In this document: piece by piece, positions 4,855-58,812 of the stretch
Layout: every line of letters starts with the position of its first letter
Numbering within the stretch: position 1 is the first letter of the stretch
Origin: an uncultured Acidobacteriota bacterium
Lineage (GTDB): Bacteria; Acidobacteriota; Vicinamibacteria; Fen-336
DNA: 64,000 bases
Reading direction: 5' to 3'
NCBI GenBank assembly: GCA_963742595.1
Contig: CAVUMT010000001.1
Span: forward strand, 1,767,633 to 1,831,632
Made by a program: the position numbers and the translations under genes
The notes under the pieces: model-generated
Told to the model about the DNA's origin: nothing
Databases searched by the model: none
The model's input: the letters and a program-made list of their open reading frames with translations, nothing else

Positions 4855-6130
4855 TCAACGCCCCCCCGGCCACCCAGGGGCGCTCCGTGGAATCTCCCTG
4901 AGCAACGCCTTGCGGAACGGCTCGTAGTCCACCTCCGTCGAGTGCCGGGGCGTGCGCATGAACGTCCGAAGGGTCGTGCGCGCCTCCTCCGCGACGCGCG
5001 ACTCCAGGTCCGCGGGCAGCCGGTAGCGGCCCACGATGGCGTTGGCCACGAGCTGGCCCTGCAGCTCGGCAAGGGGCCAGATGCAACCGACGGGCTGCAA
5101 GAGGCCGATGAAGAAGAGGCTCCGGAGCCGCGGGTGGAAGCAGCGCAGGTAGAGGGGGACGGGGCCGCTCGAGAAGTCGACGAGCGAGCGGTCCAGGAAG
5201 GGGAACGTGATCCGGAATCCCGTGGCCGCGATCACGGCGTCGAATTCCTCGACGCGATCCGTCCGCGAAGCGGACGGATTTCTCTTCAAAGCCGGCCACA
5301 TCCGGCCGAGGGTGAATCCTTCCGTGTCGAATGAAATACAGCAGCTCCGAGTTCACGACCGGATGTGACGAGAGGAATCGGTGGTCCGGTCGGGGGAGAC
5401 CGTAACGCTCGAAGCTCCCCGTCACGAGGCGCAACAGCACGACTCGAGGAGCCGGGCCCGCACGGGGCGCGGCAGGAAAAGGATGCCTCGAGTGGAGCAG
5501 CGTCCGACGGCAAGCCCGAACAGGAACTTGGGGACGAAGTGAGTAGCCCCGACGCATGCTGATCCCGGTGAAGGCAGAGACTCTCGCGGTCTCGACCGCG
5601 ATGTCGCAAGCGGAGTTGCCTCCGCCGACCACGAGCACCCGGCGGTCCCGGTAGGGGGCCGCGCTCTTGAAGGCATGGGAGTGGACGAGCTCCCCCGTGA
5701 AGCGCCCGGGATAGTCCGGCATGCGGGGGTCCCAGTGATGGCCGTTGGCGACGAGCAGGAAGTCGAACCGCTCCGCCGACCCGTCGCCGAGCGTGACGCG
5801 CCACCCTTCCCCGTCGGAACGGCTCTCACCACCTCCGTTCCGAAACGGATGTGGGGTAGCACGTCGAAGCGCCGCGCGTAGCCCTCGAAGTAGGCCTGCA
5901 GCTCCCGGTGGCCGGGGTAGTCGGCCTGCTCCGGCGGCCACGGGTAGTCCGAGTACTGCGAGAGGGCCTTGGAGCTGATGATGTGCGTCGTCTCGAAGAC
6001 GCTGGAGTGCGAGGGTCCGGGATCGAAGACCCAGTTGCCGCCCACGCGGTGGTTGCGGTCGTAGACGACCACGTCCCGGAGGCCGGCCTGGAGCAGGTGC
6101 TTGGCCGCGGTGATCCCGGAAGGACCGGCG
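4855..6130 (-). pseudogene. flavin-containing monooxygenase (FMO-like), split over at least three frames
   Basis: FAD GxGxxG (CVIGAGPSGITAAKHL) in one frame. NADPH GxGxxG (VLVVGGGNSACDIAVE) in a second. C-terminal FMO segment (FFIGLLQPVGCIWPLAELQ) in a third. At least 3 frameshifts. Confidence 0.6.
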
Positions 6131-6476
6131 CCGATGACGCAGCAGCGGGGCACGCCGGAACGGCTCAGCCGACGGGGGTGATGGGCCAGGGACGGCTGAC
6201 GTAGTCGGCGATCGGTGAGGAGGATGAGGATGGCGAGGAACACGAAGCCCCGAGCAGAGCACGAGGGTCGTGAGGCGCGGGCTGTAGCGCACGTGCATGA
6301 AGAAGAGGATCACGAGCGTCGCCTTGATCGACGGCGATGCCGAGGGCGATCGACGGTGTTGAAGGGGCCGAAGTCGCGGCCCGCGCGCCTGGACGGTGAC
6401 CACGGTGAGCGACGGCGAGAGCCAGGAAGATGACCGAGGTAGATCGCGCCAGGAGACGACGTGCGTGGCTCGGCCA

Positions 6477-7240
6477 TCAGTGGTGCCCGATCAGGTAGAG
6501 GAGGGGGAAGAGGAAGATCCAGACGATGTCCACGAAGTGCCAGTAGAGCCCGGTGATCTCCACCGGGGTGTGCCAGGCGGGCGAGAAGCGGCCCCGCGCC
6601 GCCATCGCCCGCGACGATCGGCCAGGATGGGGATGCCGATGATCATGTGAAGCGCGTGGAGGCCGGTCATCCCGAAGTAGAGCGAGAAGTAGATCTGGCG
6701 CCTGGCGGCCCCTGATCCGGCGGCGAGGTGCGAGCGACGGTGGGGTCGAAGCGGTTGCCCGGCACCAGGCACCCCGCATGCGGCCCGTCCCCGAGGCAGG
6801 GTGCGATCTTCTCGCGGTACTCGACGTACTTCACCCCCAGGAAGACGCCGCCGAGGAGGATGGTGAGGACGATCCAGACGACGATCGCCTTCGCTCTTCC
6901 CGCACCGCCGCCGAGTGGACGGCCATGGCCATGGTGAGGCTGCTGCCGATGAGCACGAGGGTGTTGAAGACGCCGAGCTTCCAGACGAGGTGTGGCTCGC
7001 CGCGGCGAAGGCGTCGTAGTAGAGGTAGCGGTAGACCGCGTAGGTCGCGAAGAGGCCGCCGAAGAACATGATCTCCTGGACGATGAAGACCCACATCCCG
7101 AGCGTGCGCGCCTCCTTCTGCTGCTCGAGGTCCGCGAAGTGGTGGACGAGCGGGCCGTGCGCGGCGTGTCCGGACACCGTCGCCTCAGCCATGGAGCGCT
7201 CCCTTGCGAGGGTCGGGTAGTCGTAGACCTCTTCGCGCAC
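6477..7240 (-). CDS. coxC: cytochrome c oxidase subunit III (frameshifted)
   Basis: [36 protein letters not shown]-terminus; middle ([24 protein letters not shown]) and C-terminus ([24 protein letters not shown]) in other frames. Confidence 0.8.
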
Positions 7241-8665
7241 CTCGGGCGTCGTCGTCGAAGTTCTCGGTGGGGGGCGGCGAGGAGGTCTGCCACTCGAGGC
7301 CGGTGGCGGGCCAGGGGTTCGCGGCGGCGATCTTGCCGTAGCGCATCGACCAGGCGAGGTAGAACATCGGGATCAGGTAGCCCACGCCCAGGATCGATGC
7401 GCCCGCGGAGGACATCACGTTCAGCACCTGGAACTCCGGCGGGGTAGACGTGGTAGCGCCGCGGCATGCCCAGGTAGCCCAGGATGAACTGCGGGAAGAA
7501 GGTCAGGTTGAAGCCGACGAAGACGATCACCGCGGACACCCGCGCCCACCACTCCGGGTAGAGCCGGCCCGTGATCTTGGGCCACCAGAAGTGCAGCCCG
7601 CCGAGGTAGCCCATGATCGTGCCCCCCACCATGATGTAGTGGAAGTGGGCCACGATGAAGTAGGTGTCGGTCACGTGGATGTCGAGGCCCAGGGTGGCCA
7701 GGAAGAGTCCGGTGAGGCCGCCGATGGTGAAGAGGCCGATGAAGCCGAACGCGTAGAGCATCGGGGTCTGCCAGGAGATCGAGCCCCGGTAGAGGGTGGC
7801 CATCCAGTTGAAGACCTTGATCGCGGAGGGGATGGCCACCAGGAAGCTCAGGGCGGAGAAGATCATCGCGGCGTAGACGCTGAGCCCCGTCACGAACATG
7901 TGGTGGGCCCAGACCAGGAAGCTGATCCCCGCGATGGCCAGGCTCGACATGGCGATGAAGCCGTAGCCGAAGACGCGCTTGCGCGAGAAGCAGGTCACGA
8001 GCTCGCTGATCACGCCCATGGCGGGCAGGATCATGATGTAGACCGCGGGGTGCGAGTAGAACCAGAAGAGGTGCTGGAAGAGGATGGGGTCGCCGCCCCG
8101 GGTGGGGTCGAAGAAGCCGAAGTTGAAGACGCGCTCCAGGGCCACGAGCAGGATGGTCACCGCGATCACCGGGCGTGCCCAGGATCTGGATGACGCGAGG
8201 TGGCGTAGTGGGCCCACACGAACAGGGGCAGGCGGAACCAGGTCAGGCCGGGGGCCCGCATCTTGTGGATGGTCACGATGAAGTTGAGGCCGGTGAGGAT
8301 CGAGGAGAAGCCGGTGATGAAGATCGCCGACGCCGGCGGCACGACCACGCTGGTTGGAGTAGACGACGTGCTGTACGGGCGTGTAGAAGGTCCAGCCGGT
8401 GTCGAGCCCGCCCACGACGAGCGCGTAGAGCGATGAAGGCGCGCCCGATCACGTAGATGTACCAGGAGAGCAGGTTGATGCGCGGGAAGGCCAGGTCCTT
8501 GGCCCCGATCATGAGGGGGATGAGGAAGTTTCCGAGCACGGCGGGGATGGCGGGGATCAGGAAGAAGAAGACCATGATCACGCCGTGGGCGGTGAAGAGC
8601 TTGTTGTAGGTCTCGGCGGTGACGAGGCTCCCCGTGGGCTCCACGAGGTGCAGGCGGATGAGCAC
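7185..8665 (-). CDS. coxA: cytochrome c oxidase subunit I (frameshifted in at least 3 places)
   Basis: Hallmark CoxA segments spread over four ORF-track frames: [64 protein letters not shown], and C-terminal [14 protein letters not shown]. Confidence 0.85.
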
Positions 8666-8775
8666 CGCGTAGGCCCCGCCCAGGAAGAAGGCGAGCGTGA
8701 CGGAGACGAGGTAGAGGAGCGCGATGCGCTTGTGGTCGATGGTGAGCAGCCACGACTTCCAGCCGTAGTCGGCGT

Positions 8776-9769
8776 TCAGGTAGTGCTGCTTCGGGAGGGA
8801 CGTGCGGCTGTCCTCTCATCATGGCTTCCTCCGCGAGCACGGGGGTGCAGGGACTGGACGTAGGCGATGAGCTGGAGCAGCGACTCCTCGCTCACCTGCC
8901 CGAGGTAGGTCGGCATGACCGGCTGGTAGCCGGCGACGATCCGGGCCGCGGGGTTCAGGATCGATTCCCGGAGGTAGGCCTCGTCCGCCACCACCGTCAC
9001 CTCCGCCCTGGAGGGCGACGCGCTTGCCGAAGAGTCCGTTCAGGACGGGGCCCCGCCCCGCGGAATCCGGCCGATGGCAGGTGACGCAGTTGAGCTCCGT
9101 GAAGAGCTTCTCCCCCGCCTTGGCCGGCGACACCGGGGCGGGACCGCCGGCCAGCCACGTCTGGTAGGCGTCGGGCTCCATCACCACCACCCGGCCGATC
9201 ATCTTCGAATGCTCGGTACCGCAGTACTCGGCGCAGAAGAGGTGGTATGTCCCGGTCTTGGTCGCCTTGAACCAGGCGGTGTTGTAGCGCCCGGGCACCG
9301 CGTCCTTCTTGATGCGGAAGGCGGGCACGAAGAAGCTGTGGATCATGTCCTCCGAGGTGAGGTTGAGGCGCACGGGCTCGCCCACGGGCACGTGCAGCTC
9401 GTTGATCTCGCGCTGGCCGGTCGGGTGCTGGAGCTTCCACATCCAGCGCTTGCCCACCACGTTCACGGTCATCGCGTCGTCGGGCGTCCGGTTCATGTGG
9501 AAGAAGACGCGGGCTCCCCAGACGAACATGACGATGGTGAGGAGGAAGGGGATGATGCTCCAGGTGAGCTCGAGCGCGAGCGAGCCGTGGATCTCCTCGG
9601 GACGGTCGTGCTCGGACCGCCGACGGTAGCGGATCGCGAAGACGACGAGGGTGAGGCCGATTCCCGCCGAGAAGACGATCGTGACCGCGCACAGGAAGAG
9701 GTAGAGCGCGTCCACCTCGCCGGCGATGATGGAGGCCTGCTCGGGAAAGAGCGGAAGACCGGGGCCCAT
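8776..9769 (-). CDS. coxB: cytochrome c oxidase subunit II with C-terminal cytochrome c domain (caa3-type); one frameshift near 9000
   Basis: Two N-terminal TM helices. CuA motif [15 protein letters not shown]. Haem-binding CVTCH. C-terminal cytochrome c tail found in a shifted frame (ORF 8776..9000). Confidence 0.85.
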
Positions 9770-9779
9770 GGCCTACGCC

Positions 9780-10640
9780 GCGCCTCCCGCGAGACGCCGC
9801 CGCCTTCTCCCGCGCCACGAGCGAAAGACGAAGCCCCCGAGGACGAGGACCGTGAGCGCCGAAGCGAGGCGGAGCACGGTCATGATGGTGGCGCTGTAGC
9901 GTCCGGTGACGGGGTCGTACTGGTAGCAGTAGAGGAGGAGCTGGTCGAGCGGGCTCGAGATCTTCCCTTCCCCCGACTCCACGAGGGCGAGGCGCAGGTC
10001 CTTCGGGCGCGTACTCGATGCCGAAGAGGTAGCGCGCGATCTTCCCCTCGGGGGTCAGCACCACGAGCCCCGCGGGATGCGCGAACTGCTTCGTCTCCTC
10101 GTCCCAGGCGTAGCGGAAGCCCACCGCCTTCGCGATTGCCTCGAGGGCCGAGGCGTCGCCGGTCAGGAAGTGCCATCCCGCTGCCGCTTCCGGCTCGCTC
10201 GAGCGGGCGAGGTAGGCCTTCTTCTTGTGCGGCGGCGAGGGCCGGACCCTCCTGGGAGTCGAAGCTGATCGTGACGAGCTCGAACTCGCGGCCCGGGACG
10301 AAGGAGACGACCTCGAGCGCGCTCGCGAGGCCGTTCAGGCTCACGGTGCAGAGCATCGGGCAGTCGAAGTAGACGAGGTTCAGCACGACCGGCTTGCCGC
10401 CGAAGTAGTCGCGAAGGCGCACCGCTCGGCCGCTCTCGTCGCGGAGCGTGAGGTCGAGGGGCAGGCTCTCGCCCAGCTTCTGGTCGAAGCCGATGTCGCG
10501 CAGGGCGTCGGGCGCGGTCGGCCTGGGCGAGCGACCGGCCGCCAGGATGGGCCGGCGAGGAGCGTCACTTCGCCTTCGCCCGAGGACGCGGTCGCGAGAG
10601 AGAGCGTCACTGTGCCCCCCCGGCTCGACCAGGAGCCGCA
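9780..10640 (-). CDS. SCO1/SenC family copper chaperone (frameshifted)
   Basis: Thioredoxin-like core GKPVVLNLVYFDCPMLCT and FRYAWDEETKQFAHPAGLVVLTPEGKIARYLFGIEY; C-terminal hydrophobic tail in a shifted frame. Start not resolved. Confidence 0.6.
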
Positions 10641-10649
10641 TCGCCTCCT

Positions 10650-10989
10650 CGATCGGGATGCGCACGACGCCCTGCTCCTTGTCCACCCAGCCGTAGCCTC
10701 CGAGGATCCGGTCTTCCTGCTCGCGGAAGGCGGTCAGGTCGAGGGCGGGGCCGGTCTGGAGCAGAGGCGGAGGCGGAGCGAGGACACCCGCGGCGGGCTT
10801 CAGGATCGGAGGCGGGGGCTGGCGCGAGGCTTCCTGCCGGACGAAGACGAAGTAGAGCCAGTACAGGAAGAACACGGTCGCGATCGTGACCATGACGATG
10901 ACGAAGCCGGCCTTGAGGAGAGCGCCGGCGTCGACGTCCGTCTTCTCGAACCGGACCTCGGGATTCGAGGGCACGGGGCGCTCGGTCAT
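10650..10989 (-). CDS. small single-TM membrane protein between actF and sco1 (possible ActG-like or oxidase accessory subunit)
   Basis: ATG at complement 10989: MTERPVPSNPEVRFEKTDVDAGALLKAGFVIVMVTIATVFFLYWLYF... The boundary with sco1 is not resolved because there is no stop in frame, so a frameshift is likely. Confidence 0.35.
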
Positions 10990-12140
10990 CGCGACCCCCG
11001 CCGCGAGCCGCCAGGAGCTCCGCCATCTCCGGCTCGCCCACCGGAAGGAGGGGACGGGTGCGGAGCTGCCGCGCGAAGAAGAAGAGCCACAGAGCCACCC
11101 AGCCCCCGCGACCGCGGCCACGTCCAGCCAGTGCACGGTGAGGCGCACCGCCCGCGGTCCGTGCCCGAGGAGGTCGGGGGCGACGAGCCAGTAGAGGTCG
11201 ACGAGCCGGACGAGGATCATGAACCCGGCCAGCGCTCCCCAGGAGCCGCGCGTTGCGCTTCAGGTCGCGCGACAGCAGGAGGAGGAACGGGAACACGAAG
11301 TGGAAGAGCGAGGAGGAAGATGGCCACGTACTGCCAGCCGCCGCGGAAGCGACGCGAGATAGAAGGGCGTCTCCTCCGCGATGTTCCCCGACCAGATGAT
11401 CAGGAACTGCGAGAGGTTCACGTAGGCCCAGAGCATGGTGAAGGCGAGCATCAGCTTGCCGAGGTCGTGGACGGTCCCGGGCCGCACCGCGTCCCGCATC
11501 GGCGCCTCGTCGGCAGGTGCGGGCCACGCAGCACGATCATGAGGGCGAGGGCGGAGAGCGCCTGCCCCACCATGAACAGGACCCCGTAGATGTGCGAGAA
11601 CCAGTGCGGGTTGAGCGACATCGCCCCAGTCGATCGCGGAGAAGGTGATGGTGAGGCCGAGGAGCACGAGCCCGCCTCCGGAGACCCCGCGGAGCTTGCG
11701 CGAGAGCTTGCAGGCTCGTCGCCCGCGTCGAGCTCCCGCGACCACCGGTTCAGGAAGTGCGCGAGCGAGGATCCAGACCGCGAAGTAGAAGACGGCGCGG
11801 CCGAGGAAGAAGGGCACGTTCAGGTAGAGCGCCTTGTGCAGGAGGAGCGAGTCCTGGCCGGGATGCGTCCAGGGGTAGAGCCGACCGAGCCCGAGCGGCC
11901 ACGGGCAGGAAGAGCACCACGAGGAGCGGGAAGAGCCGGGTCCCCGCCTCCAGGAAGCGGCGGATCAGGAGGCCCCACATCCCGCCCGTGAGGTGGCTGA
12001 TGAGCGAGGATCGAGAGGCAGCCGACCGACATCCCCGATCCAGAAGAGGAAGGCGAAGAGCCAGGAGCGGTAGAACTGGTCGGGGACGGTGAGGAGCCCG
12101 ATCCCGCACGCGAGGAGACCCAGCCCGGCTACGGGCAGGG
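10990..12140 (-). CDS. actF: alternative complex III subunit ActF (NrfD-like membrane subunit), frameshifted
   Basis: NrfD/PsrC-like polytopic membrane segments (FFLGRAVFYFAVWIL, LMLAFTMLWAYVNLSQFLIIWSGNIAEETPFY) downstream of actE. Confidence 0.6.
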
Positions 12141-12790
12141 CGCGACGCTCCAGGCGCTCGAGGGAAGCGGGCGTGGGCAGGCGCGGCGCTGCTCAATGGG
12201 TGCCTCGCTTCCGGCGCGTCCAGGGCCGACCGCGCGATCGGCGGGCACGTCCTCGAGCCGCGCGTTCTGGCTGAGCTGGAGCGCGCGCACGTAGGCCACG
12301 ATCGCCCAGCGGTCCTCCACCGGCGATCTGCGCCGAGTAGTCGGACATGGCCCCGAAGCCGTTCGTGATCACGTCGAAGAAGTAGCCGACGGGCATCTCG
12401 CGCAGGCGGTCGACGTGGAACGAGGAGGGCTTCTTGAAGCCGCGCTGCGACGACCATGCCGTCGCCGCGCCCGGTGCGGCCGTGGCAGGGCGCGCAGAAC
12501 GTCTCGAAGCGCTCGCGGCCCCTGCGGAGCGAGCTCCGGGGTGAGGGGCACGGGCAGCTCGCTCGACCGCCGCGCCGTCAACCTTGCCCGTGTGGAGCGC
12601 GTCGTCCTCGCGAGGTGTCCGCGCGCCACCGTGCCCGCGACCCGCGGGCGCGCCGACCGGTGGTCGGAATAGAACGTCGCTTCGCGGCGAGCGGCTTGAA
12701 CTTGGGCTGGTCGTGCATGTCCTGCCGGCAGCCGCCGAGAGCGAGGAGAGCACGAGCAGGAGCGAGGCACCGAGGGCGAGGTGTCGCCCG
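12140..12790 (-). CDS. actE: alternative complex III monohaem cytochrome c lipoprotein ActE (frameshifted)
   Basis: Lipobox LLALGGC; conserved ActE segments [33 protein letters not shown] and [18 protein letters not shown]. Confidence 0.55.
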
Positions 12791-12989
12791 GACCGCGACC
12801 TCGGTGAATCCGAATGTCCGTCCGTGCGCGCGACTCGGCTGAGCGCGTGGCGACTCAGTGCTCGACCTCGCGTCACCGCCGCATGGCGCCCGAGACGCGT
12901 CGCAGGAACTTCTGGTCGTCTTCGCCGGTCGAACTTCGGGTCGCGCGACTCGATGCAGATGAAGAAGCGGTCGCGGCGAGGCGAGGGCG

Positions 12990-13559
12990 AAGCTCGGCAC
13001 GTTGAAGACCGGGTGGTAGGGCTGGGGCAGGCCGTTCAGGGCGAGCATGCCGAAGACCGCCGTCCCCGCCGCGAAGAGGATCGTGGTCTCGAAGGCGGGG
13101 ACGATGAAGGCGGGCCAGGAGTAGAACGGGCCGTCCGCCGATGTTCATCGGGTACTCGATGACCGCGGCCCAGTACTCGAGGCCCCAGCCCGCGAGGCAT
13201 CCCGAGGATGCCCCCGCGAGGACGATCTTGGGCAGGGGCGACTTGTGGAGCTCGAGGGCCTCCGACAGCTCCTCGATGGGATAGGGCGAGTAGGCGTCGA
13301 CCTTCGTGTAGCCCGCCTCGTGCACGCGCTTGCGCCGCCTCCACCACCTCGTGCGGGCGAGTGGAACTCGGCCATGCAGGCCGTAGAGATGGCGCGTGGC
13401 CGCCTTCACGCGCTGCTCCTCCTTCGACTCCGCCTCGGGGAGGATCGTGCGCATCTCGAAGATCGAGATCGCGGGCAGGAAGCGGACGAACAGGAAGAGC
13501 AGGGTGACGAAGAGGCCGAGGGTGCCGACGAAGGCGGCCCAGTCGAAGCGCGTGCCCGC

Positions 13560-13560
<1 letters not shown>
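12990..13560 (-). CDS. actD: alternative complex III subunit ActD (DUF3341-like)
   Basis: [58 protein letters not shown], typical of ActD. Confidence 0.6.
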
Positions 13561-14775
<1,215 letters not shown>

Positions 14776-14789
14776 GCGTGCTCGCGGTA

Positions 14790-47274: not shown

Positions 47275-48344
47275 GGGTGCTCCACGTGGACACGGCCCGC
47301 ACCTGGCGCGGCGGGCAGAACCAGGTGCTCCTCACGGCGCTCGGACAGGCCGCGCGCGGCCACGAGGTCGTGGTCGCGTGCCGGTCGGGGCGGGGCTCTC
47401 GAGACGCGCGCCCGGGACGAGGGGATCGCGGTGCGGCCGCTGCCGTTCCACGGGGACCTGTGGCCGCCCGCGGTCTGGGGTCTGGCGCGAGCGCTCCGCG
47501 AGGCGCGTCCGGACGTCCTGCAGCTCCACGACCCGCATGCCGTGGGAAGCGGCTGTGGCGGCGGCGCGGATCGCCGGGGTGGCCACCGTGGCCACCCGCC
47601 GCGTCGACTTCCGGTTGCGGGGCCCCCTCTCCCGGGGGAAGTACGGACGCTGCGAGCGCGTGATCGCGGTGAGCCGCGCCATCGCCTCTGTCCTGGAGGC
47701 GGACGGCATCCCCGGCGAGCGCGTCGCGCCTCGTGTACGAGGGCGTCCCCGACCGGGAGCCTCCCGCGGGCGGGGACGAGGCGCTGCGCGCGCTCGGCGT
47801 GCCCGAGGGCGCCCCCGTCGTCGGGAACGTGGCCGCGCTCACCGGCCACAAGGACCACGCGACGCTGCTCGACGCGGCCCAGGTCGTCCTGCGCCGGCGC
47901 CCGGACGTGCGCTTCGTGATCGCGGGAGAGGGACCGCTGCGCGGCGAGCTCGAGTCGCGCGCCCGCGAGCAGGGGCTCGAGGGTCGCGTGATCTTCGCGG
48001 GATTCCGCAGAGACGTCGACCGGCTGCTCCCCGCCTTCTCCGTCTTCTGCCTCTCTTCGCACCTCGAGGGACTGGGAACGAGCCTCCTCGACGCCATGGC
48101 CTTCGGACGGCCGGTGGTGGCGACCGCCGCGGGAGGCATCCCGGAGGCGGTGGAGGACGGCGTGACGGGGATCGTGGTCCCTGTCCGCAACCCGGTGGCG
48201 CTCGGGCAGGCCCTGCTCGACGTGCTCGGCGACGCCGGCCTCCGCCGGCGTCTGGGGAGCGCGGGCCGCGCGCGATTTCTCGAGCGGTTCACGGCGGACC
48301 GGATGGTGGAGGAGACCCTGGACGTCTACCGGGGGACGCGGTGA
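47271..48344 (+). CDS. family 4 glycosyltransferase (frameshifted)
   Basis: MRVLHVDTARTWRGGQNQVLL N-terminus. C-terminal GT4 motifs FAGFRRDVDRLLPAFSVFCLSSHLEGLGTSLLDAMAFGRPVVATAAGGIPE. Confidence 0.65.
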
Positions 48345-49261
48345 GCGTCCACGCGATCTGGAACCCGCGCGCGGGGGTCGCGGCCCGGCGCGCCCTCGAC
48401 GCGCTCCGAAGCGGGGGGTCGCCCTGGAAGGACGCGACCGTTCGCGAGACGACGGCGCCCGGGGACGCCCAGGTCTTCGCGGCGGAAGCGGTGGCGGCGG
48501 GAGCCGAGATCGTCCTGTCCATGGGAGGCGACGGGACCGTGAACGAGACCGCGCGGGGCCTGCTCGGCTCCGACGTGCCCCTCGGGATCGTCCCCGTGGG
48601 CTCCGGCAACGGACTCGCCCGCGCTCTGCGGGTGCCTCTCGACCCCGCGCGCGCGCTCATGGCGCTCGCGGCGGGGGCGCGACGCCGCATGGACGTCGGC
48701 GTCGTGAACGACAAGCCCTTCCTGAACGTGGCGGGCGTGGGCTTCGACGCCGTCGTGGGGTGGGCCTTCCACATGGCGGGCCGCGATGGCGGCCGCCGCG
48801 GCATCCTCACATACCTGCGGATGAGCTTCTCGCTGGTCAGCGCCTTCCGGCCCACTCCCCTCGTCATCGACACGGGGAGCGACCGCCTCGAAGCGAGTCC
48901 CTTCGTTCTCGTCGTCGCCAACGGACCGCAGTACGGGGCGGGCGCCCTCATCAATCCGGGGGCACGGCTGGACGACGGCCGGTTCGAGATCGTGGTGTTC
49001 GACGACGCGCCGCTCCCCGAGATCGCCTGGAACGCGCCGCGGCTCTTCCTGGGGCGTCTCAGCCGCTCGCGCCGCCACCGGCGGCTCGAGGCGAGCCACG
49101 TCGTGATCACGCCCGCGGTCGCGGTCGAGCATCACCGCGACGGCGAGCCGGAGCCCGAGGCGAGCCGGCTCGAGATCGCGCTGCGCCCCCGGGCCCTGAA
49201 CGTCCTCGTGCCGCGGGCGACCGTGCAGGATCCGCAGGGACCGTTCGGGGAAACGGAATGA
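48341..49261 (+). CDS. diacylglycerol kinase catalytic-domain family lipid kinase (YegS/BmrU-like)
   Basis: GTG start overlapping the GT4 stop (GTGA). GGDGTVNE, intact 306 aa. Confidence 0.7.
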   Translation: MSVHAIWNPRAGVAARRALDALRSGGSPWKDATVRETTAPGDAQVFAAEAVAAGAEIVLSMGGDGTVNETARGLLGSDVPLGIVPVGSGNGLARALRVPLDPARALMALAAGARRRMDVGVVNDKPFLNVAGVGFDAVVGWAFHMAGRDGGRRGILTYLRMSFSLVSAFRPTPLVIDTGSDRLEASPFVLVVANGPQYGAGALINPGARLDDGRFEIVVFDDAPLPEIAWNAPRLFLGRLSRSRRHRRLEASHVVITPAVAVEHHRDGEPEPEASRLEIALRPRALNVLVPRATVQDPQGPFGETE

Positions 49262-49282
49262 GCCACGTGTCCGCGGGCCGCT

Positions 49283-49309
49283 CCACTCCTCGACTTCGTC
49301 GAGGAGTGG
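49283..49309. terminator. perfect 12-bp hairpin between convergent genes (no U-tract)
   Basis: ccactcctcgac-ttc-gtcgaggagtgg between the lipid-kinase stop and the dapA-like stop. Confidence 0.4.
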
Positions 49310-50242
49310 CTAGACCGCGCCCTCCGCACGCTCGAGAAGCACGCGGAGCTCGTCGCGCACGGCGGGAGCCGCGGGCAGGAGAGGCGAGCGCACGGAGCCG
49401 CCGCGGCGGCCCGCGAGATCCATCGCGACCTTCAGACCGGCGACGCCGTGCGTCGCGGTGACGGCGACGGCGAGAGGCGAGAGCGCCTCCTGCAGGCGGC
49501 GCGCCCGCGAGTGGTCGCCCGATTCGAACGCGCGGTAGAGCGCGGCCACCGGACGAGGCGCGCAGTTCGCGACGGCGAGGACGCCTCCCGGGGAGCCGAC
49601 GCAGAGGGCGGGATAGAAAACCGGTCCCGAGCCGCACAGCACGGCGAACGACGAGGGGACCGAGGCCACGATCCGGCCCATGAGTCCGAGGTCGCCGCTG
49701 GATTCCTTCATGCCGAGGATCCGGGGATTCGCGGCGAGAGCGGGTGCCAAAGCCACGGGCCAGGCGAGGCCCGTGAAGACCGGGACGGAATAGAGAAGGA
49801 CGGGGATCGGCGAGGCTTCGGCCACGGCCTCGAAATGGCGTCGAAGGGCCTCCACCGACATCTGCGGCTTGTAGTAGCAGGGCGTGAGGACGAGGGCCAT
49901 GTCGACGCCGGCGTCGGCCGCCGTGCGCGTGAACGCGATCGTCCCCCGGGTGCTCTCGAGCCCCGTTCCCGCGAGGAGAACGCGCCGCCCCGCGTGCTTG
50001 CGCGCGGCGCGCAGTAGCGCCACCTTCTCGCTCTCCTCGAGGCTCGCCGCTTCGCCGTTCGAGCCCAGCGCGAGGTAGCCCGCGAGGTCGTTCTCGCCCA
50101 GGGACTCGAGGTTCGCCTCGAACGACGCGAGATCCAGCCCCCCGTCGGGCAGGAATGGGGTGACGAGGGGGGGGATGACGCCGCGAAGGCGTTCCCGCCC
50201 TCCCGCCGTCTCACCCGACGGGGAGGGAGCCGGAGAAGGCAC
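49310..50242 (-). CDS. DapA/NanA (dihydrodipicolinate synthase) family lyase
   Basis: ...VIPPLVTPF...LALGSNGEAASL... Intact 310 aa. Confidence 0.6.
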   Translation of the reverse strand: MPSPAPSPSGETAGGRERLRGVIPPLVTPFLPDGGLDLASFEANLESLGENDLAGYLALGSNGEAASLEESEKVALLRAARKHAGRRVLLAGTGLESTRGTIAFTRTAADAGVDMALVLTPCYYKPQMSVEALRRHFEAVAEASPIPVLLYSVPVFTGLAWPVALAPALAANPRILGMKESSGDLGLMGRIVASVPSSFAVLCGSGPVFYPALCVGSPGGVLAVANCAPRPVAALYRAFESGDHSRARRLQEALSPLAVAVTATHGVAGLKVAMDLAGRRGGSVRSPLLPAAPAVRDELRVLLERAEGAV

Positions 50243-50245
50243 CGG

Positions 50246-50767
50246 TCAGGCGGAGGGGGTCTTCTTGCCCAGCGCCTGCGCCACGCGCCCGATGAGCCGG
50301 ACGTCCTGCTGCGTGAAGGCGTCGCGGAAGTCGCTCCAGACCTCGAGGATGGCCCAGAGCCCGGCGTCCGTCCTCACCGGCGCCACCAAGGCACTCCCGG
50401 TGGCCAGGCCCACTCCCGCCCAGGCCGGCACGGTGGAGACGTCGGAGACGACCGTGGGGTTGGCGCCTTGCGCCGCCTCGGCCAGAGGCCCCGCGCCCGT
50501 CCAGATTCGGTCGGGACCGGTCGGCCTCTCGAGTGCTATGTGAACGGCCAGGTCTTCTCCGTCCGCCACGTAGGCGGTGATCGAGGAGAAGCGCGCGAAG
50601 CGCTTCTTCATGATCTCCACCGCCTGGCGCAGGGACTCCTCGAAGGAGGGCGCCTTCTTGATCGATTCCTCGACCTCTTGCAGCACCTGTTCGCGGCGCT
50701 GCGCGCTCTTGCGCGCGAGGTCCGTCTTCCAGGGCTTGTCTTCCTCGTGAATCGACGTCATGTTCAC
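50246..50767 (-). CDS. GAF domain protein
   Basis: 173 aa, intact. GAF-like fold segments (ITAYVADGEDLAVHIA..., AWAGVGLATGSALVAPV...). Confidence 0.55.
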   Translation of the reverse strand: MNMTSIHEEDKPWKTDLARKSAQRREQVLQEVEESIKKAPSFEESLRQAVEIMKKRFARFSSITAYVADGEDLAVHIALERPTGPDRIWTGAGPLAEAAQGANPTVVSDVSTVPAWAGVGLATGSALVAPVRTDAGLWAILEVWSDFRDAFTQQDVRLIGRVAQALGKKTPSA

Positions 50768-50789
50768 CTCGGAACGATCTCCTTTCCTC

Positions 50790-51518
50790 TCATACGATCG
50801 CGCGCCCCCCGTCCAGCCGGAGGACGTCGCCCGTCGTAAAGCTCGCCCCCACGAGCAGGAACACCACCGCCTCGACCACTTCCGCCGCGCGGCCGAAGCG
50901 CCCTTGCGGGATCCGACGCCGCACCTCCTCGTCCGCCCCCGGGGGGTCCACGACTCCCGGGGCCACCGCGTTCACGCGGATGTCCGGGGCGAGGGCCAGG
51001 GCAAGGCAGCTCGTGGCCATGACGAGAGCCGCCTTCGAGGCGCAGTACGGCAGATACGACTTCCAGGGTCGGAGTCCGCCCACGCTGGCCACGTTCACGA
51101 TGGCGCCCCCGCCGCGACGGCGCATGTGCGGCGCCGCCGCCCGCGAGGCCATGACCGCGGCCTTGACGTTCACGTCGAAGGCCTCGTCGAGGACCTCCTC
51201 CGTCAGCTCCCCGAGCGGTACCTTCCGGAAGACTCCGACGTTGTTCACGAGGTAGTCGAGACCGCCGAGGACGCCGGCCGCCTCGTCCACGAAGCCCGCC
51301 ATCTCGCCGGGCATCCGGGCGTCGGCGGGTCCGATATGGACGCGGCGACCGAGACGCCGGATGGCGTCCGCCTCGTCCTCCGCTCCTCGCCGGCTCTCCC
51401 GATAGGAGAAGGCCACGTCGGCCCCCTCCTCCGCGAGCGCCTTCACCAGCGCCCGACCCAGACCCTTGCCCCCGCCCGTGACGGCCGCGATCCTTCCTCG
51501 GAGCCTCGGCTCATGCAT
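50790..51518 (-). CDS. SDR family short-chain dehydrogenase/reductase
   Basis: TGGGKGLGRAL Rossmann motif. YxxxK (YCASKAAL). NAVAPGVVD. Intact. Confidence 0.75.
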   Translation of the reverse strand: MHEPRLRGRIAAVTGGGKGLGRALVKALAEEGADVAFSYRESRRGAEDEADAIRRLGRRVHIGPADARMPGEMAGFVDEAAGVLGGLDYLVNNVGVFRKVPLGELTEEVLDEAFDVNVKAAVMASRAAAPHMRRRGGGAIVNVASVGGLRPWKSYLPYCASKAALVMATSCLALALAPDIRVNAVAPGVVDPPGADEEVRRRIPQGRFGRAAEVVEAVVFLLVGASFTTGDVLRLDGGRAIV

Positions 51519-51539
51519 GTGTGGGGCAAAACCTTGGGA

Positions 51540-53200
51540 TTATAGCACCACGCCCTCCGGCCTTTGTGTGATGCCCGGCAATAGGCTCATTTCAAACGGC
51601 TTCACTTCTTCGGCGCGGGCCTGAAGTCCAGGTCCTGGTAGTCGAAGCTGAAGTCCGCGAGGGGCGAGACCGCGCGCATGCTGATGCGGTCGATGCTCGC
51701 CATCCGCCTTGAGCGCGAACGTCACGTAGGCCGGCTCGATCAGAGGGTCGCGCCAGTCGACGCGAAACGTGTCGTACTGCCAGTGCGTCAGCACGCCCGT
51801 CATGCCGGGCGTCTGCTTGAAGTCCATCGTCAGCCGGCCGTCGCGGTGAGCGATGACCATCGGCCCGTACCAGGCATCGGCGAACTCGCCGGCGTAGCGC
51901 TCGAGGGGCAGCGACGGGCCGACGCGCGCGGGCGTGCTCGTCTGCTCCTTCAGGAGCGCCACCACCCGCTCGTCGCGCTGACGAACCACCTCCTGCCAGG
52001 CGGCTCCCCAGTCGTAGCGCGGCTGCTCGAGGTAGTGGTCGAGCAGCTCGTAGGCGATGCCCAGCGCGGCTTCCCCGTCTTCGCAGTTGATCATCACCGA
52101 GAAGCCGACGTTCGCGGTCGGGGATCAGCATGATGATCGCCTGCGCGCCGAACACGGCGCCGCTGTGCGTGAGGAGCCGGCGGCCCGCGGTAGTCCCGCT
52201 CCACCCAGCCGAGAGCGTAGCCGTTGAATTGCGGCGTCGCCGCCGCGGTGGGGCCGGGCGAGGGCGAGATGGGCAGGTGCACGCGCGGCGTCCACATCTG
52301 GCGCGACGCCGCTTCGCTGAACAGGCGGCCCGAGCCCTCGGGGAGCGCGCCGCGCGCGAGCTGGATCGCGATCCAGCGGGCCATGTCGTTGGCGCTGGCC
52401 GCGACGCCCCCGGCCGGCGCCGCGTTCTGCGCCCAGCTCGGGATCGAACTCGGCCTGCCCGCTGTCGTCGAGCGCCTGCTGCGTGCCCATGCCGTGCATC
52501 GGGCCGTCGCGGCGCGCGTGCGGCCAGGCGCGGTTCGCCGTCCGGCGGCGGTCGACACGGTCCGAGGTCGCCGTGCGCATGCCCGCGGGGACGAGGACGT
52601 CCTCGCGCACGAAGCGCTCCCAGCTCTTGCCGCTGACCTCTTCGATGAGCTGGCCGGCGACGACGTAGAGCACGTTGTCGTAGGCATAGGCGCTGCGGAA
52701 GCTCGTCGCGGGACGGATGTAGCGAAGGCGCCGCACCGTCTCGGCGCGGCTCAGCGTCGAGCGCGGCACGAACATCAGGTCGCCGGCGCCGAGGCCCAGC
52801 CCGCTGCGATGCACGAGGAGATCGACTACCGTCATCTCGCGCGTGACCCAGGGGTCGTACATCTGGAACCAGGGGATGTGCTTGGTCACCGGGTCGTCCC
52901 ACGCGATCTGGCCGCGATCCACGAGCACGGCCAGGGCGGCGGTCGTGAACGCCTTCCCGACGGAGCCGAGCTGGAAGATCGTGTCCGCGTCGACGGGCGC
53001 CGTCGTCGCCCAGCCGCCGTATGCCGTAGCCGCGCGCCAGGGTCACCCTGCCGCTGCTCCACGATCGTCACGGCGAGGCCCGGAACGCCGACCGCGGTCC
53101 GGATCTGCTCGACGCGCGCGTCGAAGCCCGTCGGGCGGGTCGGCCCGCGCCGCGCCGGCCAGACACCAGGCCGCGGCCGCGAACGTGGCCGCTCTCGACA
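51540..53200 (-). CDS. beta-lactamase/transpeptidase-fold serine hydrolase with C-terminal extension domain (3 or more frameshifts)
   Basis: ATG at complement 53200 with signal MSRAATFAAAAWCLAG. SxxK = SVGK. Middle ...YAYDNVLYVVAGQLIE... C-terminal domain ...WQYDTFRVDWRDPLIEPAYVTFAL... Confidence 0.65.
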
Positions 53201-53227
53201 TCCGCTTTCGACGCACCTGGCCGGCCG

Positions 53228-55597
53228 CTACGAGCCCCAGAACCTCGTCGATACGGACAGCCCGATCGTCCGCGGCCGGATCAGGCCCAGGCCGAGCGCG
53301 CCGTTGGGAAGGGGGCCGGCGTCGCCGATGCTGACGTGACGCCCTGCTCGTTCGTGAGGTTCTTTCCGTAGAGCTCGACGGACCATCGACCGAGGTAGAC
53401 GCCCGCGCGAAGGTCCAGGGTCACGAAGCTGTCGAGCCTGGCGAAGGCTGCCGTCGGGCAGCCCGGTTGTCGAACTGGACCGTTCGTTCGCCGGTGTAGC
53501 CCAGGCGTGCCGCCGACATAGGCCCGCGTGCTGCCCTTCACCGTCCATTCGTAGTCCGCGTTCAGCGCGAAGCTCCATTCCGGCACGTACGGGAGCGGAT
53601 CGCCGTCCTCGCCGCCGACGACGGGATCGGTGTCCTCCGTGAGCTTGGCGTCCGTGTACGCTCCGTTCAGGGACAACGCCAGGCCACTCGCCGGAAAGAC
53701 GCTGGCCGCGAGCTCGAGGCCCTTGCTCACGGCGGTTCCACCGTTGCCGTTGATTCCGAAGTTGTTCACCACCAGGAACAGCTGGATGTCCTCCCAATCG
53801 AGGTAGAAGGCGCTGAAATCGAGCGAGAACTTGTCCGCCGGGCCCGCCCCCCGCCTTCAGGCCGAGCTCGTAGCTCGTCAGGCTGTCCGAGTCGTACGTC
53901 CTCGGAATGTCCGGCGGAGCGCCCGGCGGCAGCACGTTGGGTCCGCCCGGCCGGAAGCCCGTGGCGACGCGGCCGTAGATCGACGCGTTCTGCTTCAGCT
54001 CGAAGCGCGGCGCGAACGACAAGGTGAACGGGCTCTCCGAGGACTCCACGTCGTCGAACCTCGACGAGTCCGCCGACCAGGGGGCCGTCGGAGAGCTGCG
54101 ACGCGACCTGCTCGTTGTGGCTCAGCGCGGCCGCCGAACGACGAGGTCCAGGCGCGGCGTGGCGTGCCAGGTGGCGTTGGCGAACCCGGCGAACTCCTCG
54201 TACGTCGAGTCGAGCGAGACGTCGGCCAGGGTCGGGACGCCGGTGGCGACGTTGTCCGTGCCGGCTTCGACGGCCACGATCTTCTGCTTGATGGCGGAGT
54301 CCTCGTCGGTGTAGTACGCGCCGACCAGCCACTCGAAGGACTCGCTCTTGGGCGAGACGAGGCGCAGCTCCTGGCGTGAACTTGTCGGTGCTGGTCGTCT
54401 GCGGCAGGACCGCGCTCAGCGGCCGCGTCTGCGGCATCGCCGAAGAGGAGGGTCACGAGCGAGGCCAGGGGCGGACCGCCCGTCAGGTTGGTCGCGATGG
54501 CCAGGTCGGTCTGGAAGTCCGTCTCGAACGTGCCGTAGCTCGTGATGGACTCGAGGCTGGCGGGCCCGAGGTCCCAGTCGATGGTGCCGCTGTAGACCCG
54601 ATACTTCGTGTCGTTGAACTCCGACTGGTAGCGGGACTGCACCGGAGTGCTCGTTCAGCGGCTCGAGGCTGTCCGGGTCGCCGTCGACCGTGCTGGACGC
54701 GTCGCTCTCCATGTTCTGCAGCTGCACCGCCAGGTTGACCGAGAGCTTGTCGGAGGGCTTGAACAGCGCGGCGAAGCGCCCTCCGAACCGGTCGAGCGAG
54801 TTGAGGCCGTCGTCGACGAGCGTGCCGTCGATGACGTTGATCGCCGGGTTCGTGAGGCTGGGGATCGGGTTGTTGCCGATCGAGTCGATGAAGCCGCTGT
54901 CGAACCGATAGAAGCCGCTGGCCCGGACCGCGACCTTGTCGCCGAGCGGCACGTTCACGAGGCCCGGTCAGGGAGTACCCGGGGTCGCCGTTGGCGACGG
55001 TCTCCGCGCTGCCCATGAACGCGCGCCTCGAACCTCTCGGTGCTGGGCCGGTTCGGAACGTACTTCATGACGCCGCCGAGCGAGCTCGCTCCGTACAGGG
55101 TGCCCTGCGGGCCACGCAGCACTTCGACCCGGGCGATGTCGAACGTGTCGAAGTCGCCGGACGACGATCGCGGCGTTGGCCAGGCCGGTGCTCGAGCCGA
55201 ACGGCACGTCGTCGAAGTAGACGCCGATGGTCGACGCGACGCCGTCGGTGTTGATGCCGCGCAAGGTGATGCGGGTGACTCCCGGCCGGGCGGTGGTGAC
55301 GCTCAGGCCCGGCACCAGCGGCACGAGGTCCTGGAAGTCGTCGGCCCGCTGCTGTTCCAGCAGCTGGCCGCCGACGACCGTGACCGAGGCCGGAATGTCC
55401 GCGATGGCCTCCGTGCGCTTCTGGGCGGTGACGACGACCTCCTCGCGAAAGGCCAGGGGCTTCGACGGATCGTCCGCCGCGGCTTGCGTCGGCGGCTCCT
55501 TCGTCCTCGGTCGGAGCGGCGGCGGTTCCTGGGCCCAGGCCAGGCGGGGCACAGCAGGCCGAGTCAGGACAAGGACGCTCGTTCTCGAAGGACGCAT
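53228..55597 (-). CDS. TonB-dependent outer-membrane receptor (5 or more frameshifts)
   Basis: Plug domain ...EVVVTAQKRTEAIADIPASVTVV...ITLRGIN... Barrel segments in four further frames. C-terminal ...RTIGLSVSTRFWGS. Confidence 0.7.
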
Positions 55598-55648
55598 GAA
55601 CCACCTCCCGGAGTTGCCGGTGCGCGTGGCTGCGTGGACACGATCAAA

Positions 55649-55767
55649 GCATCAGGTGTTGCAGCGTTGTCAAGCCGCGCATGCGCGCGGCGCTGTCGAG
55701 CCGGACGCCGCCTTGACGGCTTCCCGGCGGATGGGATAAGACACCGGAGCATCAAGTGTTGCAAGTG
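55649..55767. repeat. direct repeat of an 18-nt motif AGCATCA(A/G)GTGTTGCA exactly 100 nt apart in a divergent promoter region
   Basis: aaGCATCAGGTGTTGCAgcg at 55649 and gaGCATCAAGTGTTGCAagtg at 55749. A related caagtgttga occurs at 58885 upstream of the RpiR regulator. Confidence 0.45.
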
Positions 55768-55818
55768 ACGGGCGGATCGGCGGAGCCCGCTCTCCCGGCT
55801 TCAGGGGGTCGAATCGCC

Positions 55819-57832
55819 ATGACTCGCTCGTCACGCCGCGTGACCGCTGTGCCGGCGGGCCGCCCTCGCCTCGGCCCTCGGCCTCCTGGCCGCCATCGTG
55901 GGGGCGGCCGACACGCCCGCGCGCGCCTTCGACGCGGGAGGCGACCCGACCTACCGGCCCGTCGAGGCGGCCGCGCCGCAGCCGCTGGCCGACGCGCGGC
56001 CTCCGCAGCCCCGAGGAGCTCGAGGCCTTCGTGGACGGCTTCGTGGGCGGCGAGCTGCGAGGCCTACGACGTGGCCGGCTTGACCGTGGCCGTGGTCAAG
56101 GACGGGCAGCTCTTCTTCGCCAAGGGCTACGGCTGGGCGGACGTGGAGCGCCGGGTCCCGGTCGACGCGGAGGAGACGCTGTTCCGGCCCGGGTCGGTGT
56201 CCAAGCTCTTCACCTGGACCGCGGTCATGCAGCTCGTCGAGCAGGGCAAGCTGGATCTCGACGCCGACGTGAACACCTACCTGACGCAGTTCAAGATCCC
56301 CGCCACCTACGACGGCGCCCATCACGCTCCGGCACGCGCTCACCCACACGGTGGGGCTGGAGGACGGCGGCATCGGATACCTGATGGCGCGCAGCCCGCG
56401 AGCAGATCGTGCCCCTGGCCCGGTCCCTGGCCGCAGCATCAGCCCGCCCGCGTGCGGCCGGTGGGCACGAGCGGCGAGGGCCTGAGCTCGTCCTATTCCA
56501 ACTGGGCCACGTCCCTGGCGGGCCTGATCGTGGCCAACGTCTCCGGCGTGTCGTTCGAGGACTACGTGCAGGCGAACATCCTGCGCCCCCTGGGCATGGA
56601 CAGCAGCACGTTCAAGGAGCCGCTTCCGGAGGCGCTCGAGAAGCGCATGTCGGTCGGCTACACCTTCGAAGCGGGTGCGTTCAAGCCGCACGGCTACGAG
56701 TTCATCGCGAACTTCGGTCCCGCCGGCTCGCTGGCCGCCACCGCCACCGACATGGCCCGCTTCATGATCGCGCACCTCCAGGAGGGGGCGCTGGGAGACG
56801 CGCGCATCCTGAAGCCGGAGACGGCCCGCGCCATGCACGCGCGCGTCTTCAGCCCTCACCCCGCCGTGAACGGGTCCGGCCTCGGCTTCTACGAGACCTA
56901 CATGAACGGCCGGCGGATCATCGGGCACGGCGGGGACACGAACTACTTCCACAGCGAGCTCGGGCTGCTCGAGGAGGAAGGCGTCGGGTTCTTCGTCTCC
57001 GTCAACACGGGCGGCAAGGCGGCGCTCGTGCCCCGGCACTTCGTCCGTGCCTTCATGGACCACTACTTCCCGGCGCGGCTGCCCGTGGTCAAGCCCCCCG
57101 CCGACTTCGGCGCGCGGGCCGGAAAGTACGCCGGACGCTACCGCGCGCTCCGCCATTCCTACACCCGGTTCGAGAAGGTCTTCGCCCTGCTGGGAGGAGC
57201 TACCGTCGCCGCCACCGGGGACAACACGCTCGTCATCCCCGGCCTGCTCGGGGACAGCGCCCAGTACGTGGAGGTGGCGCCCGGTGTCGTTCCGCGAGGT
57301 CGACGGGGACAGGACGGTCGCGTTCATCGAGAACGGCGCCGGCCAGGTCGTGGGGATGGTCGGCCAGTTCGCCTTCATCCCCTTCTACAAGCTGCGCTGG
57401 TACGAGAGCTCGCCCTTCCACTTCACGCTGCTCGGGCTCTCCCTCCTGCTCTTCCTGATCGCCCTCGTCTCGGCGCTGCGGAACTGGAAGACGCGACAAG
57501 GCGGGGCCGCGAGCCGCCCGCTGGGCCCGGCGCAACCTCGGCGCGCTCGCCGCCCTCAACCTGGCCTTCCTGGTGGGCTTCGCCTCGATCTTCGCCGCCG
57601 GCCTGGACGAGCTGATCTTCGCCGTGCCCAGGAGCCTGTACGCCGTGCTGACCCTGCCGCTGATCGGGCTCGCGCTCACCGCGCTCGCGGTGGTCCTGCG
57701 CCGTGCGCGTCTGGCGGGAGTCGTACTGGACGCGCGGGCGCGCGTCTGCTTCACACCGCGGGGGTGGTGGCGGCGATCGCCTTCGTGTGGTTCCTGAACT
57801 ACTGGAACCTCCTGGGCTACCGGATCGGATAG
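55819..57832 (+). CDS. membrane-anchored beta-lactamase-family serine hydrolase (3 or more frameshifts)
   Basis: SxxK = SVSKLF. ...GYGWADVERRVPVDAEETLFRPGS... C-terminal TM helices ...FHFTLLGLSLLLFLIALV... and ...VVAAIAFVWFLNYWNLLGYRIG. Confidence 0.65.
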
Positions 57833-57839
57833 AGCGCCG

Positions 57840-58812
57840 TCACTCCCGCCTTCGCGTGCCTCGTCCGCGCCGCGACCTCGGCCTGTCCTCGTCGCGTCCC
57901 GGCGCTTCCTCGTACCAGCGCGGACCCGAGAGGTACTCCTTCTCCGTCTGACGGAGCAGGGCGAGGGCGCGGCTCGGAGCGATCTCCGCGCAGGCGAGGA
58001 CGATGGCGTTCAGGAGAGCCATGGGAGCCACGTACGAGCCGCTGAACGTCGCGCCCGCGGTCGAGGCCACGAAATAGCCGTCGCATTCACGGGCCAGGGG
58101 TGTCGTGTCGCTGTCCGTGATGGCGACGGTCGGGACCCCCCGGCTCCGCGCGAGCTTCGCCGCCTCCACGGTGACGCGGAGACAGCGGCCGAAGCTGATG
58201 GCGACGAGCAGGTCCTTCCTGGCCGAGCAGTCGAACCTTGTGCTGCAGGTTGCCCCCGGTCCCCACCGGGGCTTCGGCGTCGAACCCGAGGGGCAGGAGG
58301 GCGTAGGCGAAGAACGAGGCCAGCGAAGCGGCGAGGTCCGACCCCACCACCAGGATGCGCCGCGCCTGGTGGATGCGGCGGGCGAAGCCCACCACGCGTT
58401 CGGGGTCGAGGCCGCTCTGCAGCCGGTTCAGGTTCCCGAGGTCCCGCTCGAGGCTGTGCCGAACGTGGTCGGCCAGGCTGCGCTTCTCGTCGGTGGTGGC
58501 CTTGAGGATCCGGTAAGGGGTGAGCCGCGAGACGAAGTGCTCGCGGAGATCGGTGGCGAAGTCGGTGTAGCGCTCGTAACCGAGGGCCTGCACCGTGCGC
58601 ACGATCGTGGCGGGGTCGACGCGGTAGCGACGGGCCAGGGCCCGCGAGGAGAGGAAGAAGGTCTCGTCGGGGTTCTCCAGGGTGGCCTGCAGCAGCCGCC
58701 GCCGGTTCGGCGAGAGCCGGTCCTCGTAGCGGGCGATCCTCTTCTCGATGGCCGTGCGGGTCGGAATGCCGCGCCTCGTCGCATCATTCGCTGCATGACC
58801 CGCGGTGCTCAT
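57840..58812 (-). CDS. MurR/RpiR family transcriptional regulator (HTH plus SIS domain), one frameshift
   Basis: HTH_6 region ...LSSRALARRYRVDPATIVRTVQALGY...; SIS domain ...ILVVGSDLAAS...VAITDSDTTPLA... Confidence 0.65.

Follow-up and report, generated by a model that had tools for sequence, protein, structure and literature searches.

Kilobase patches of single-base insertions in an acidobacterial assembly very probably mark consensus errors

Conserved genes along the window, the whole 64,000-nucleotide stretch of acidobacterial DNA analysed here, are repeatedly broken by changes of reading frame, which raises the question of whether the genes of the organism or only their assembled sequence are damaged. 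An earlier note had described such frame changes as widespread, and this is confirmed, with at least 177 (about 180) frameshifts distributed over at least 30 genes that are otherwise conserved. We are confident that the frameshifts are consensus errors of a long-read-based assembly, made in poorly supported stretches, and that the real genes of the organism are intact.

Distribution of frameshifts across the window

Reading frames were segmented using a codon-usage HMM, adopted in place of a raw GC-frame plot that was too noisy to read, and the coding sequence was found to consist of approximately 170 frame segments. Events were located by our own frameshift-aware protein-to-DNA dynamic-programming alignment, with the intact operon of a relative, L081, as the reference for the act/cox genes; in genes without a homologue alignment, they were taken as HMM junctions crossed by a continuous Pfam domain. 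A tblastn search using all ORFs of the relatives was dropped because, in DNA of such high GC content, it produced antisense shadow matches and ran compensating shifts together. Frameshift-aware alignment returned zero events for the intact controls OsmC, a 141-aa ORF, SDR and DHDPS. Over the whole window, 141 events are insertion-type (+1) and 36 deletion-type, approximately 80% being insertions.

The densest region is block A (5331..19795), where alignment to L081 together with Pfam places approximately 115 frameshifts. It carries FMO, coxD, coxC, coxA, coxB, a 270-aa ORF, actF-E-D-C-B-A and upp on the minus strand and a DUF507 gene on the plus strand, and the density of events peaks at 16 frameshifts per kb at 16–17 kb. 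The most damaged gene is actB (14813..17873, minus strand), with 41 frameshifts (36 insertions and 5 deletions) in 3.06 kb. Alignment to L081 gives 6 frameshifts in ActA, 11 in ActC, 3 in ActD, 6 in ActE, 13 in ActF and 4 in the 270-aa ORF of the cluster, while the cox genes contain 1 (CoxB), 7 (CoxA; 7194..8798, minus strand), 5 (CoxC) and 8 (CoxD). Pfam continuity over HMM junctions indicates a further 4 in FMO, 4 in Upp (UPRTase) and 2 in DUF507. In DNA alignment of the act/cox genes (85% identity), 96 single-base insertions stand against 12 deletions, a ratio of 8:1.

The remaining patches are smaller or less dense. A sparse patch at 22338..24597, delimited by HMM and Pfam, includes sthA on the minus strand, with three insertion-type shifts at approximately 22622, 22387 and 22338, through which positions 1–291 of the 291 in the Pyr_redox_2 profile are matched, and an OmpA-like gene on the plus strand with up to three candidate junctions from the HMM only. 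The C-terminal third of an S9 peptidase (35758..36296, minus strand) has exactly three single-base insertions, at 36296, 35937 and 35758, in DNA alignment to L162 (86% identity), and the Peptidase_S9 domain crosses these junctions. Block C (40912..47728) holds approximately 28 frameshifts, identified by alignment to L082, L084, L086 and L094 and by Pfam; alignment to the relatives finds 4–8 in Dxr, 1 in UppS, 3 each in TruA and PyrE and 4 in GT2, and Pfam continuity finds 3 each in RseP, CdsA and the N-terminal half of GT4. In block D (51697..58235), mapped by HMM junctions and Pfam continuity only, approximately 24 frameshifts fall in a first beta-lactamase-fold hydrolase (5), a TonB-dependent receptor (10), a second beta-lactamase-fold hydrolase (7) and an RpiR/SIS regulator (2). 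Earlier counts per gene were mostly too low.

Between the patches lie long stretches free of events. The longest, 11.2 kb at 24598..35757, carries rtcB, a tRNA array, MopB, a second tRNA cluster, Band_7 and two PQQ propellers, with genes that are single intact ORFs and Pfam matches that are full-length; as a control of the method, the same DNA alignment procedure found zero internal 1-nt indels relative to L162 in 4.8 kb of clean genes. By HMM and L162 alignment, a second stretch (36297..40911) spans the N-terminal part of the S9 peptidase, a BNR-like propeller gene and a TPR-like ORF. A third (47729..51696) contains the C-terminal half of GT4, DAGK, DHDPS, GAF and SDR, with zero events in the homologue alignments of SDR and DHDPS. 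The last (58236..64000) covers a kinase, PP2C, pdxJ, BlaI/BlaR-like genes and the start of a TonB receptor, and here the PdxJ profile is matched over positions 1–234 of 234 and Pkinase over 1–256 of 263. The claim that other genes in the window are intact holds for rtcB, MopB, Band_7, the two PQQ propellers, GH, DAGK, DHDPS, GAF, SDR, pdxJ, PP2C and the kinase; these genes are grouped in blocks rather than interspersed.

This patchiness is far from what a uniform rate would give: the per-kb counts of events are overdispersed (index of dispersion 5.2), and the probability of an 11.2-kb gap without events under a uniform rate is 4e-14. The patches are kilobase-sized, ignore gene boundaries and cut through single genes, with errors confined to the last 540 nt of the S9 peptidase, whose N-terminal 1.5 kb is clean, to the first half of GT4, and to 22338–22622 in sthA. 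GC content was considered as a cause of the patches and rejected, as dense and clean blocks both span 0.64–0.75 GC.

Sequence context of the inserted bases

The earlier note attributed the frameshifts to homopolymer errors, and miscalled homopolymer lengths from long-read, 454 or Ion Torrent sequencing would be a natural expectation for high-GC DNA: the contig has 70% GC and comes almost certainly from long reads, and indels at homopolymers predominate among nanopore and PacBio CCS errors, with deletions at 4–5-mers (PMC12007338). The inserted bases do not follow this pattern. Runs near the events are no longer than elsewhere, the maximum within 8 nt averaging 2.66 at events and 2.76 at random positions, and among 85 precisely placed inserted bases 60 (71%) are singletons, whereas insertion at random would give 48% (p = 5e-5). 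The region 6101–18650 has 23 homopolymers of at least 5 nt, and not one of them carries an insertion; runs of 3–4 nt hold only 5 of the 85 insertions, and the deletions also lie in runs of 1–4 nt. Most of the inserted bases are an isolated G or C, which lengthens no existing run. In sthA, where a homopolymer at 22594–22615 had been proposed as the cause and a G5 run does lie near one shift, direct reading of the sequence puts the shift near 22624, in gcgGtcg, which lies outside the G-run and upstream of it. Together with the 8:1 excess of insertions over deletions in the act/cox block, these observations make homopolymer miscalling very improbable. Of the earlier reading, the attribution to assembly or sequencing error stands, given the absence of stops, of violated invariant columns and of any shift in dN/dS described below, but its homopolymer indel mechanism does not.

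A milder bias is present among the singletons, of which 37 of 60 are complementary to the base on their 5' side, against 42% expected (p = 0.004). A strand- or motif-specific insertion rule built on this property shrank once conditioned on singletons, leaving a mild and roughly symmetric effect (62% and 53% vs 42%), and was not used as evidence.

Tests for gene decay and recoding

A second possibility is that the pseudogenization is real and massive, in a decaying symbiont-like lineage or in DNA from dead cells. Decaying genomes with bacterial pseudogenes, such as those of Mycobacterium leprae and recent symbionts, share with this window a large number of frameshifted genes, and those broken here include essential ones. 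Unlike such pseudogenes, however, the genes of the window show no further trace of decay. Once single bases are taken out, the full-length proteins are recovered and run collinear with their orthologues (the Prenyltransf profile, for example, is matched over positions 1–219 of 219), and the corrected act/cox proteins share 79–90% identity with those of L081. No in-frame stop was found in the corrected act/cox genes or in the other homologue-aligned genes, and amino-acid gaps are few. Corrected ActC, ActB and ActA keep all of their 131, 137 and 35 invariant columns, with zero violations in 303 (52–81 relatives; the 137 columns of ActB were defined over 52), when relatives tested singly show 0–5 violations each. 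Corrected CoxA, of which residues 7–539 align at 90% identity to intact 541-aa CoxA proteins, keeps 204 of the 206 columns that do not vary among 120 homologues, and the two exceptional columns may adjoin an unresolved pair of closely spaced insertions at 8380 and 8353. Values of dN/dS are 0.17–0.33 for broken genes compared with 0.24–0.31 for their intact neighbours.

Nor does the form of the damage resemble decay. Bacterial mutation is deletion-biased, whereas the spectrum here is insertion-biased, and events reach 13–16 per kb; ActB carries 41 shifts and yet, once corrected, retains 79.5% identity to the protein of the relative. The patches disregard gene boundaries and alternate with stretches as long as 11 kb without any event, and a genome of 4.7 Mb and 70% GC is not reduced. 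In the relatives the genes are whole: ActC gives a single unbroken match in 80 of 80 genomes, the entire act/cox operon of L081 is intact, CoxA homologues at 90–91% identity are intact, and the frameshift sites are missing from every relative examined. True decay is accordingly very improbable.

Least probable of all, and scarcely credible, is that approximately 140 extra nucleotides truly belong to the genome of a living acidobacterium and are skipped (by +1 ribosomal frameshifting or bypassing) or removed by deletional RNA editing in a patch-wise system, for although nearly all events are +1, the coding sequence is otherwise perfect and the inserted bases have a mild context bias, the contexts of the 85 mapped sites are diverse and share no slippery or recognition motif, the sites are absent from every relative examined, and the events follow kilobase patches, not genes or operons. 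We know of no such pervasive recoding or editing system in bacteria.

Probable consensus error and its consequences

Consensus error in poorly supported stretches is the reading to which the insertion bias, the lack of decay signs, the intact relatives and the patchiness all lead. A protein 100% identical to the RtcB of the window lies on a contig of 4,731,796 bp in NCBI/ENA, and a contig of this size from an uncultured-type Acidobacteriota lineage points to long reads. Stretches in which the consensus is poorly supported, possibly because read depth is locally low or polishing uneven, would keep spurious single bases, and well-supported stretches would come out error-free; the origin of the patches in depth or polishing is inferred, as is the platform used for sequencing. 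Unpolished or low-coverage long-read assemblies behave similarly, in that single-base indels split genes into adjacent out-of-frame fragments, intact orthologues restore full-length proteins and errors gather where support is poor, a case that tools such as Kastor address (PMC12007338). The profile here nonetheless departs from that of nanopore and CCS data in the same source, with approximately 80% insertions that avoid homopolymers (PMC12007338). Almost every event consists of a 1-nt insertion, substitutions are very few, and a check of the literature found no platform documented with an insertion-dominated, homopolymer-avoiding error profile. Raw errors in PacBio continuous long reads are stochastic, dominated by insertions and even across contexts, with few substitutions. 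The errors of the window share this dominance of insertions, independence of context and scarcity of substitutions, but they stand in a finished consensus, in which such errors should be voted out, and survive in patches only.

There is no novel biology in these frameshifts, and their value lies only in quality control, as a warning about this window. The dirty stretches, at 5.3–19.8, 22.3–24.6, 35.8–36.3, 40.9–47.7 and 51.7–58.2 kb, make up approximately half of the window and carry up to 1.3% spurious inserted bases, and gene calls, pseudogene counts and sequence-level oddities within them are not to be trusted. As the inserted bases are lone and avoid homopolymers, polishing or filtering aimed at homopolymers would leave the errors of this assembly in place.

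Little remains of the concern that the same errors might distort the unusual tRNAs of the window. The two tRNA clusters fall inside the 11.2-kb stretch without a detected frameshift, and 12 of the 13 tRNAs have the same length as their orthologues in an independent relative and align to them without gaps. The region from 24.6 to 35.8 kb appears clean, and findings on the tRNA arrays can therefore be judged on their own merits.

Extent of frameshifting in the window

The 64-kb window has a GC content of 64-75%, and its genes are nearest to those of uncultured Acidobacteriota of Vicinamibacteria, Thermoanaerobaculia and Pyrinomonadaceae type. RtcB is 100% identical to a single database protein, the next nearest (JGI Ga0683580_0002740) being 94% identical, while the nearest homologues of CoxA, at 90-91% identity, are intact. 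In L081 (NCBI GCA_974054535.1), the genome of a relative, the operon consisting of actA-F, two ORFs and coxB-A-C-D is complete and intact. There, at 11981-12305, coxD directly adjoins the FHA-EAL gene, whereas in the window (1627-6200) the two are separated by approximately 4.5 kb containing a gene for a flavin monooxygenase (4927-6145) as well as two intact minus-strand ORFs (2106-3110 and 3351-4703).

When a hidden Markov model of codon usage, with the window as its training set, was used to segment the coding sequence by frame, approximately 170 segments resulted. Within 4.9-19.3 kb and 43.4-58.8 kb the frame switches on the same strand every 100-400 nt, while outside these regions the segments are long and uninterrupted. 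Translations of the joined segments look like normal proteins, and gene identities were confirmed by Pfam, with domain matches unbroken over the junctions, for example FMO-like, UPRTase, Beta-lactamase, TonB barrel and plug, SIS, Pyr_redox_2 (1-291 of 291), Peptidase_M50 (1-221 of 221), Prenyltransf (1-219 of 219) and CTP_transf_1 (2-263 of 264).

L081 proteins were then aligned to the window with a purpose-written protein-to-DNA aligner permitting 1-nt insertions and deletions. This placed 6 frameshifts in ActA, 41 in ActB, 11 in ActC, 3 in ActD, 6 in ActE, 13 in ActF, 4 in the 270-aa ORF, 1 in CoxB, 7 in CoxA, 5 in CoxC and 8 in CoxD. After correction the act and cox proteins are 79-90% identical to those of L081, and this frameshift-aware alignment found no in-frame stops in the corrected genes. 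The intact genes for OsmC, the 141-aa ORF, SDR and DHDPS gave no events, and the false-positive rate of the aligner is therefore low. Against metagenome relatives, UppS has 1 frameshift, TruA 3, PyrE 3, GT2 4 and Dxr 4-8, while the S9 peptidase has exactly three 1-nt insertions relative to L162, the genome of a closer relative. In all, at least 177 events were compiled across at least 30 genes, a lower bound because close compensating pairs are merged, as is probable for the coxA insertions at 8380 and 8353. The pervasive frameshifting of conserved genes described in the earlier note is thus real, and was under-counted there.

Sequence error or gene decay

Genuine gene decay fits poorly with the state of the corrected proteins. 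ActC violates none of 131 columns invariant in 81 relatives, ActB none of 137 invariant in 52, and ActA none of 35 invariant in 65; single relatives put through the same test show 0-5 violations. Of 206 columns invariant across 120 homologues CoxA keeps 204, and its two exceptions may lie beside the probably merged insertions at 8380 and 8353. The presence of 41 real frameshifts in one gene is incompatible with the retention of every invariant residue. Relative to L081, dN/dS is 0.17-0.33 in the broken genes and 0.24-0.31 in their intact neighbours, and in each of the 80 genomes retrieved ActC matches in one unbroken piece. Bacterial mutation is deletion-biased, and the insertion bias of the window events (141 insertion-type, 36 deletion-type) runs opposite to it. 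The absence of invariant-column violations in ActA, ActB and ActC, the unchanged dN/dS and the intact relatives uphold the earlier reading of sequence error rather than decay, and we regard the frameshifts as very probably an artefact and not a biological feature.

The kind of error

The errors had been attributed to homopolymer indels, with the sthA shift placed in a G-run at 22594-22615. That shift is instead an extra G in gcgGtcg near 22624. Direct DNA alignment of 6101-18650 to L081 (85% identity) gave 96 single-base and 17 two-base insertions in the window vs 12 single-base deletions. G or C accounts for 79% of the 85 confidently placed inserted bases, and 60 of them are singletons, lengthening no run (random expectation 48%, p = 5e-5). 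The region contains 23 homopolymers of at least 5 nt, all free of insertions; deleted bases lie in runs of only 1-4 nt, and the maximum run length within 8 nt of the events matches background. The excess of singletons, the untouched long runs and the background run lengths therefore refute the homopolymer mechanism. In published profiles, indels in homopolymers dominate long-read errors, and nanopore deletions occur at 4-5-mers (PMC12007338); the window shows a different pattern. Mismatch errors are well below insertion errors, bounded by the near absence of substitutions.

Read on the minus strand, singleton insertions are the complement of their 5' neighbour in 37 of 60 cases (42% expected, p = 0.004), and with this neighbour 45 of the 85 mapped insertions in 6101-18650 make up a CG or GC dinucleotide; the 3' neighbour shows the same trend more weakly. 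This complement bias may be the fingerprint of a basecaller or consensus tool.

Patches of error and the tRNA genes

Events per kb are strongly over-dispersed (index 5.2): density peaks at 16 per kb between 16 and 17 kb, and the remaining dirty patches have 3-6 per kb. Event-free stretches span 482-5331, 19795-22338, 24597-35759, 36301-40912, 47728-51697 and 58235-64000, and a gap as long as the third (11.2 kb) has a probability of 4e-14 given a uniform rate. The DNA alignment procedure, applied to 4.8 kb of clean block as a control, found no internal 1-nt indel. Patch borders fall inside genes, events being confined to the last 540 nt of the S9 peptidase gene, the first half of the GT4 gene and 22338-22622 of sthA, and the patches correspond neither to GC content nor to strand. 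Their kb scale is that of long reads, and they would be produced by local variation in consensus support, via read depth or patchy polishing. Inside the densest block, the 141-aa ORF (370 nt, 10618-10987), flanked by actF and the 270-aa ORF, is free of frameshifts where approximately 3 events are expected at the local rate, perhaps by chance or because this short stretch is well supported.

All 13 tRNA genes lie within the 11.2-kb clean stretch. Ten give full-length matches at the Rfam gathering score, though at only 35-59 bits, and the ARAGORN predictions Gly-GCC (26795-26868), His (27407-27481) and Ser (30637-30726) fall below it; each of these three has an almost identical orthologue in L162. 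A syntenic array of 22 tRNAs lies between Band_7 and RtcB in L162 (7065-9524), and the window genes (26795-27642 and 30437-31126) match part of it in the same order, without nine members and split by a gene for a MopB-type molybdopterin oxidoreductase (28014-29891). This synteny and shared order make the array a lineage-conserved feature rather than an assembly artefact. Twelve of the 13 tRNAs equal their L162 orthologues in length and align without gaps, three being identical. Given this agreement and their clean location, there is little reason to distrust the tRNAs on grounds of error, and the concern that the same process had distorted them is not borne out. The sole length mismatch, one base in a G-run, is in a tRNA-like gene at 31054-31126. 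For this gene ARAGORN calls Asn(ATT), and for its L162 orthologue (7065-7136) Leu(GAG). Besides that one G (GGGGG vs GGGG), their anticodon loops are different, and the gene is odd in both genomes.
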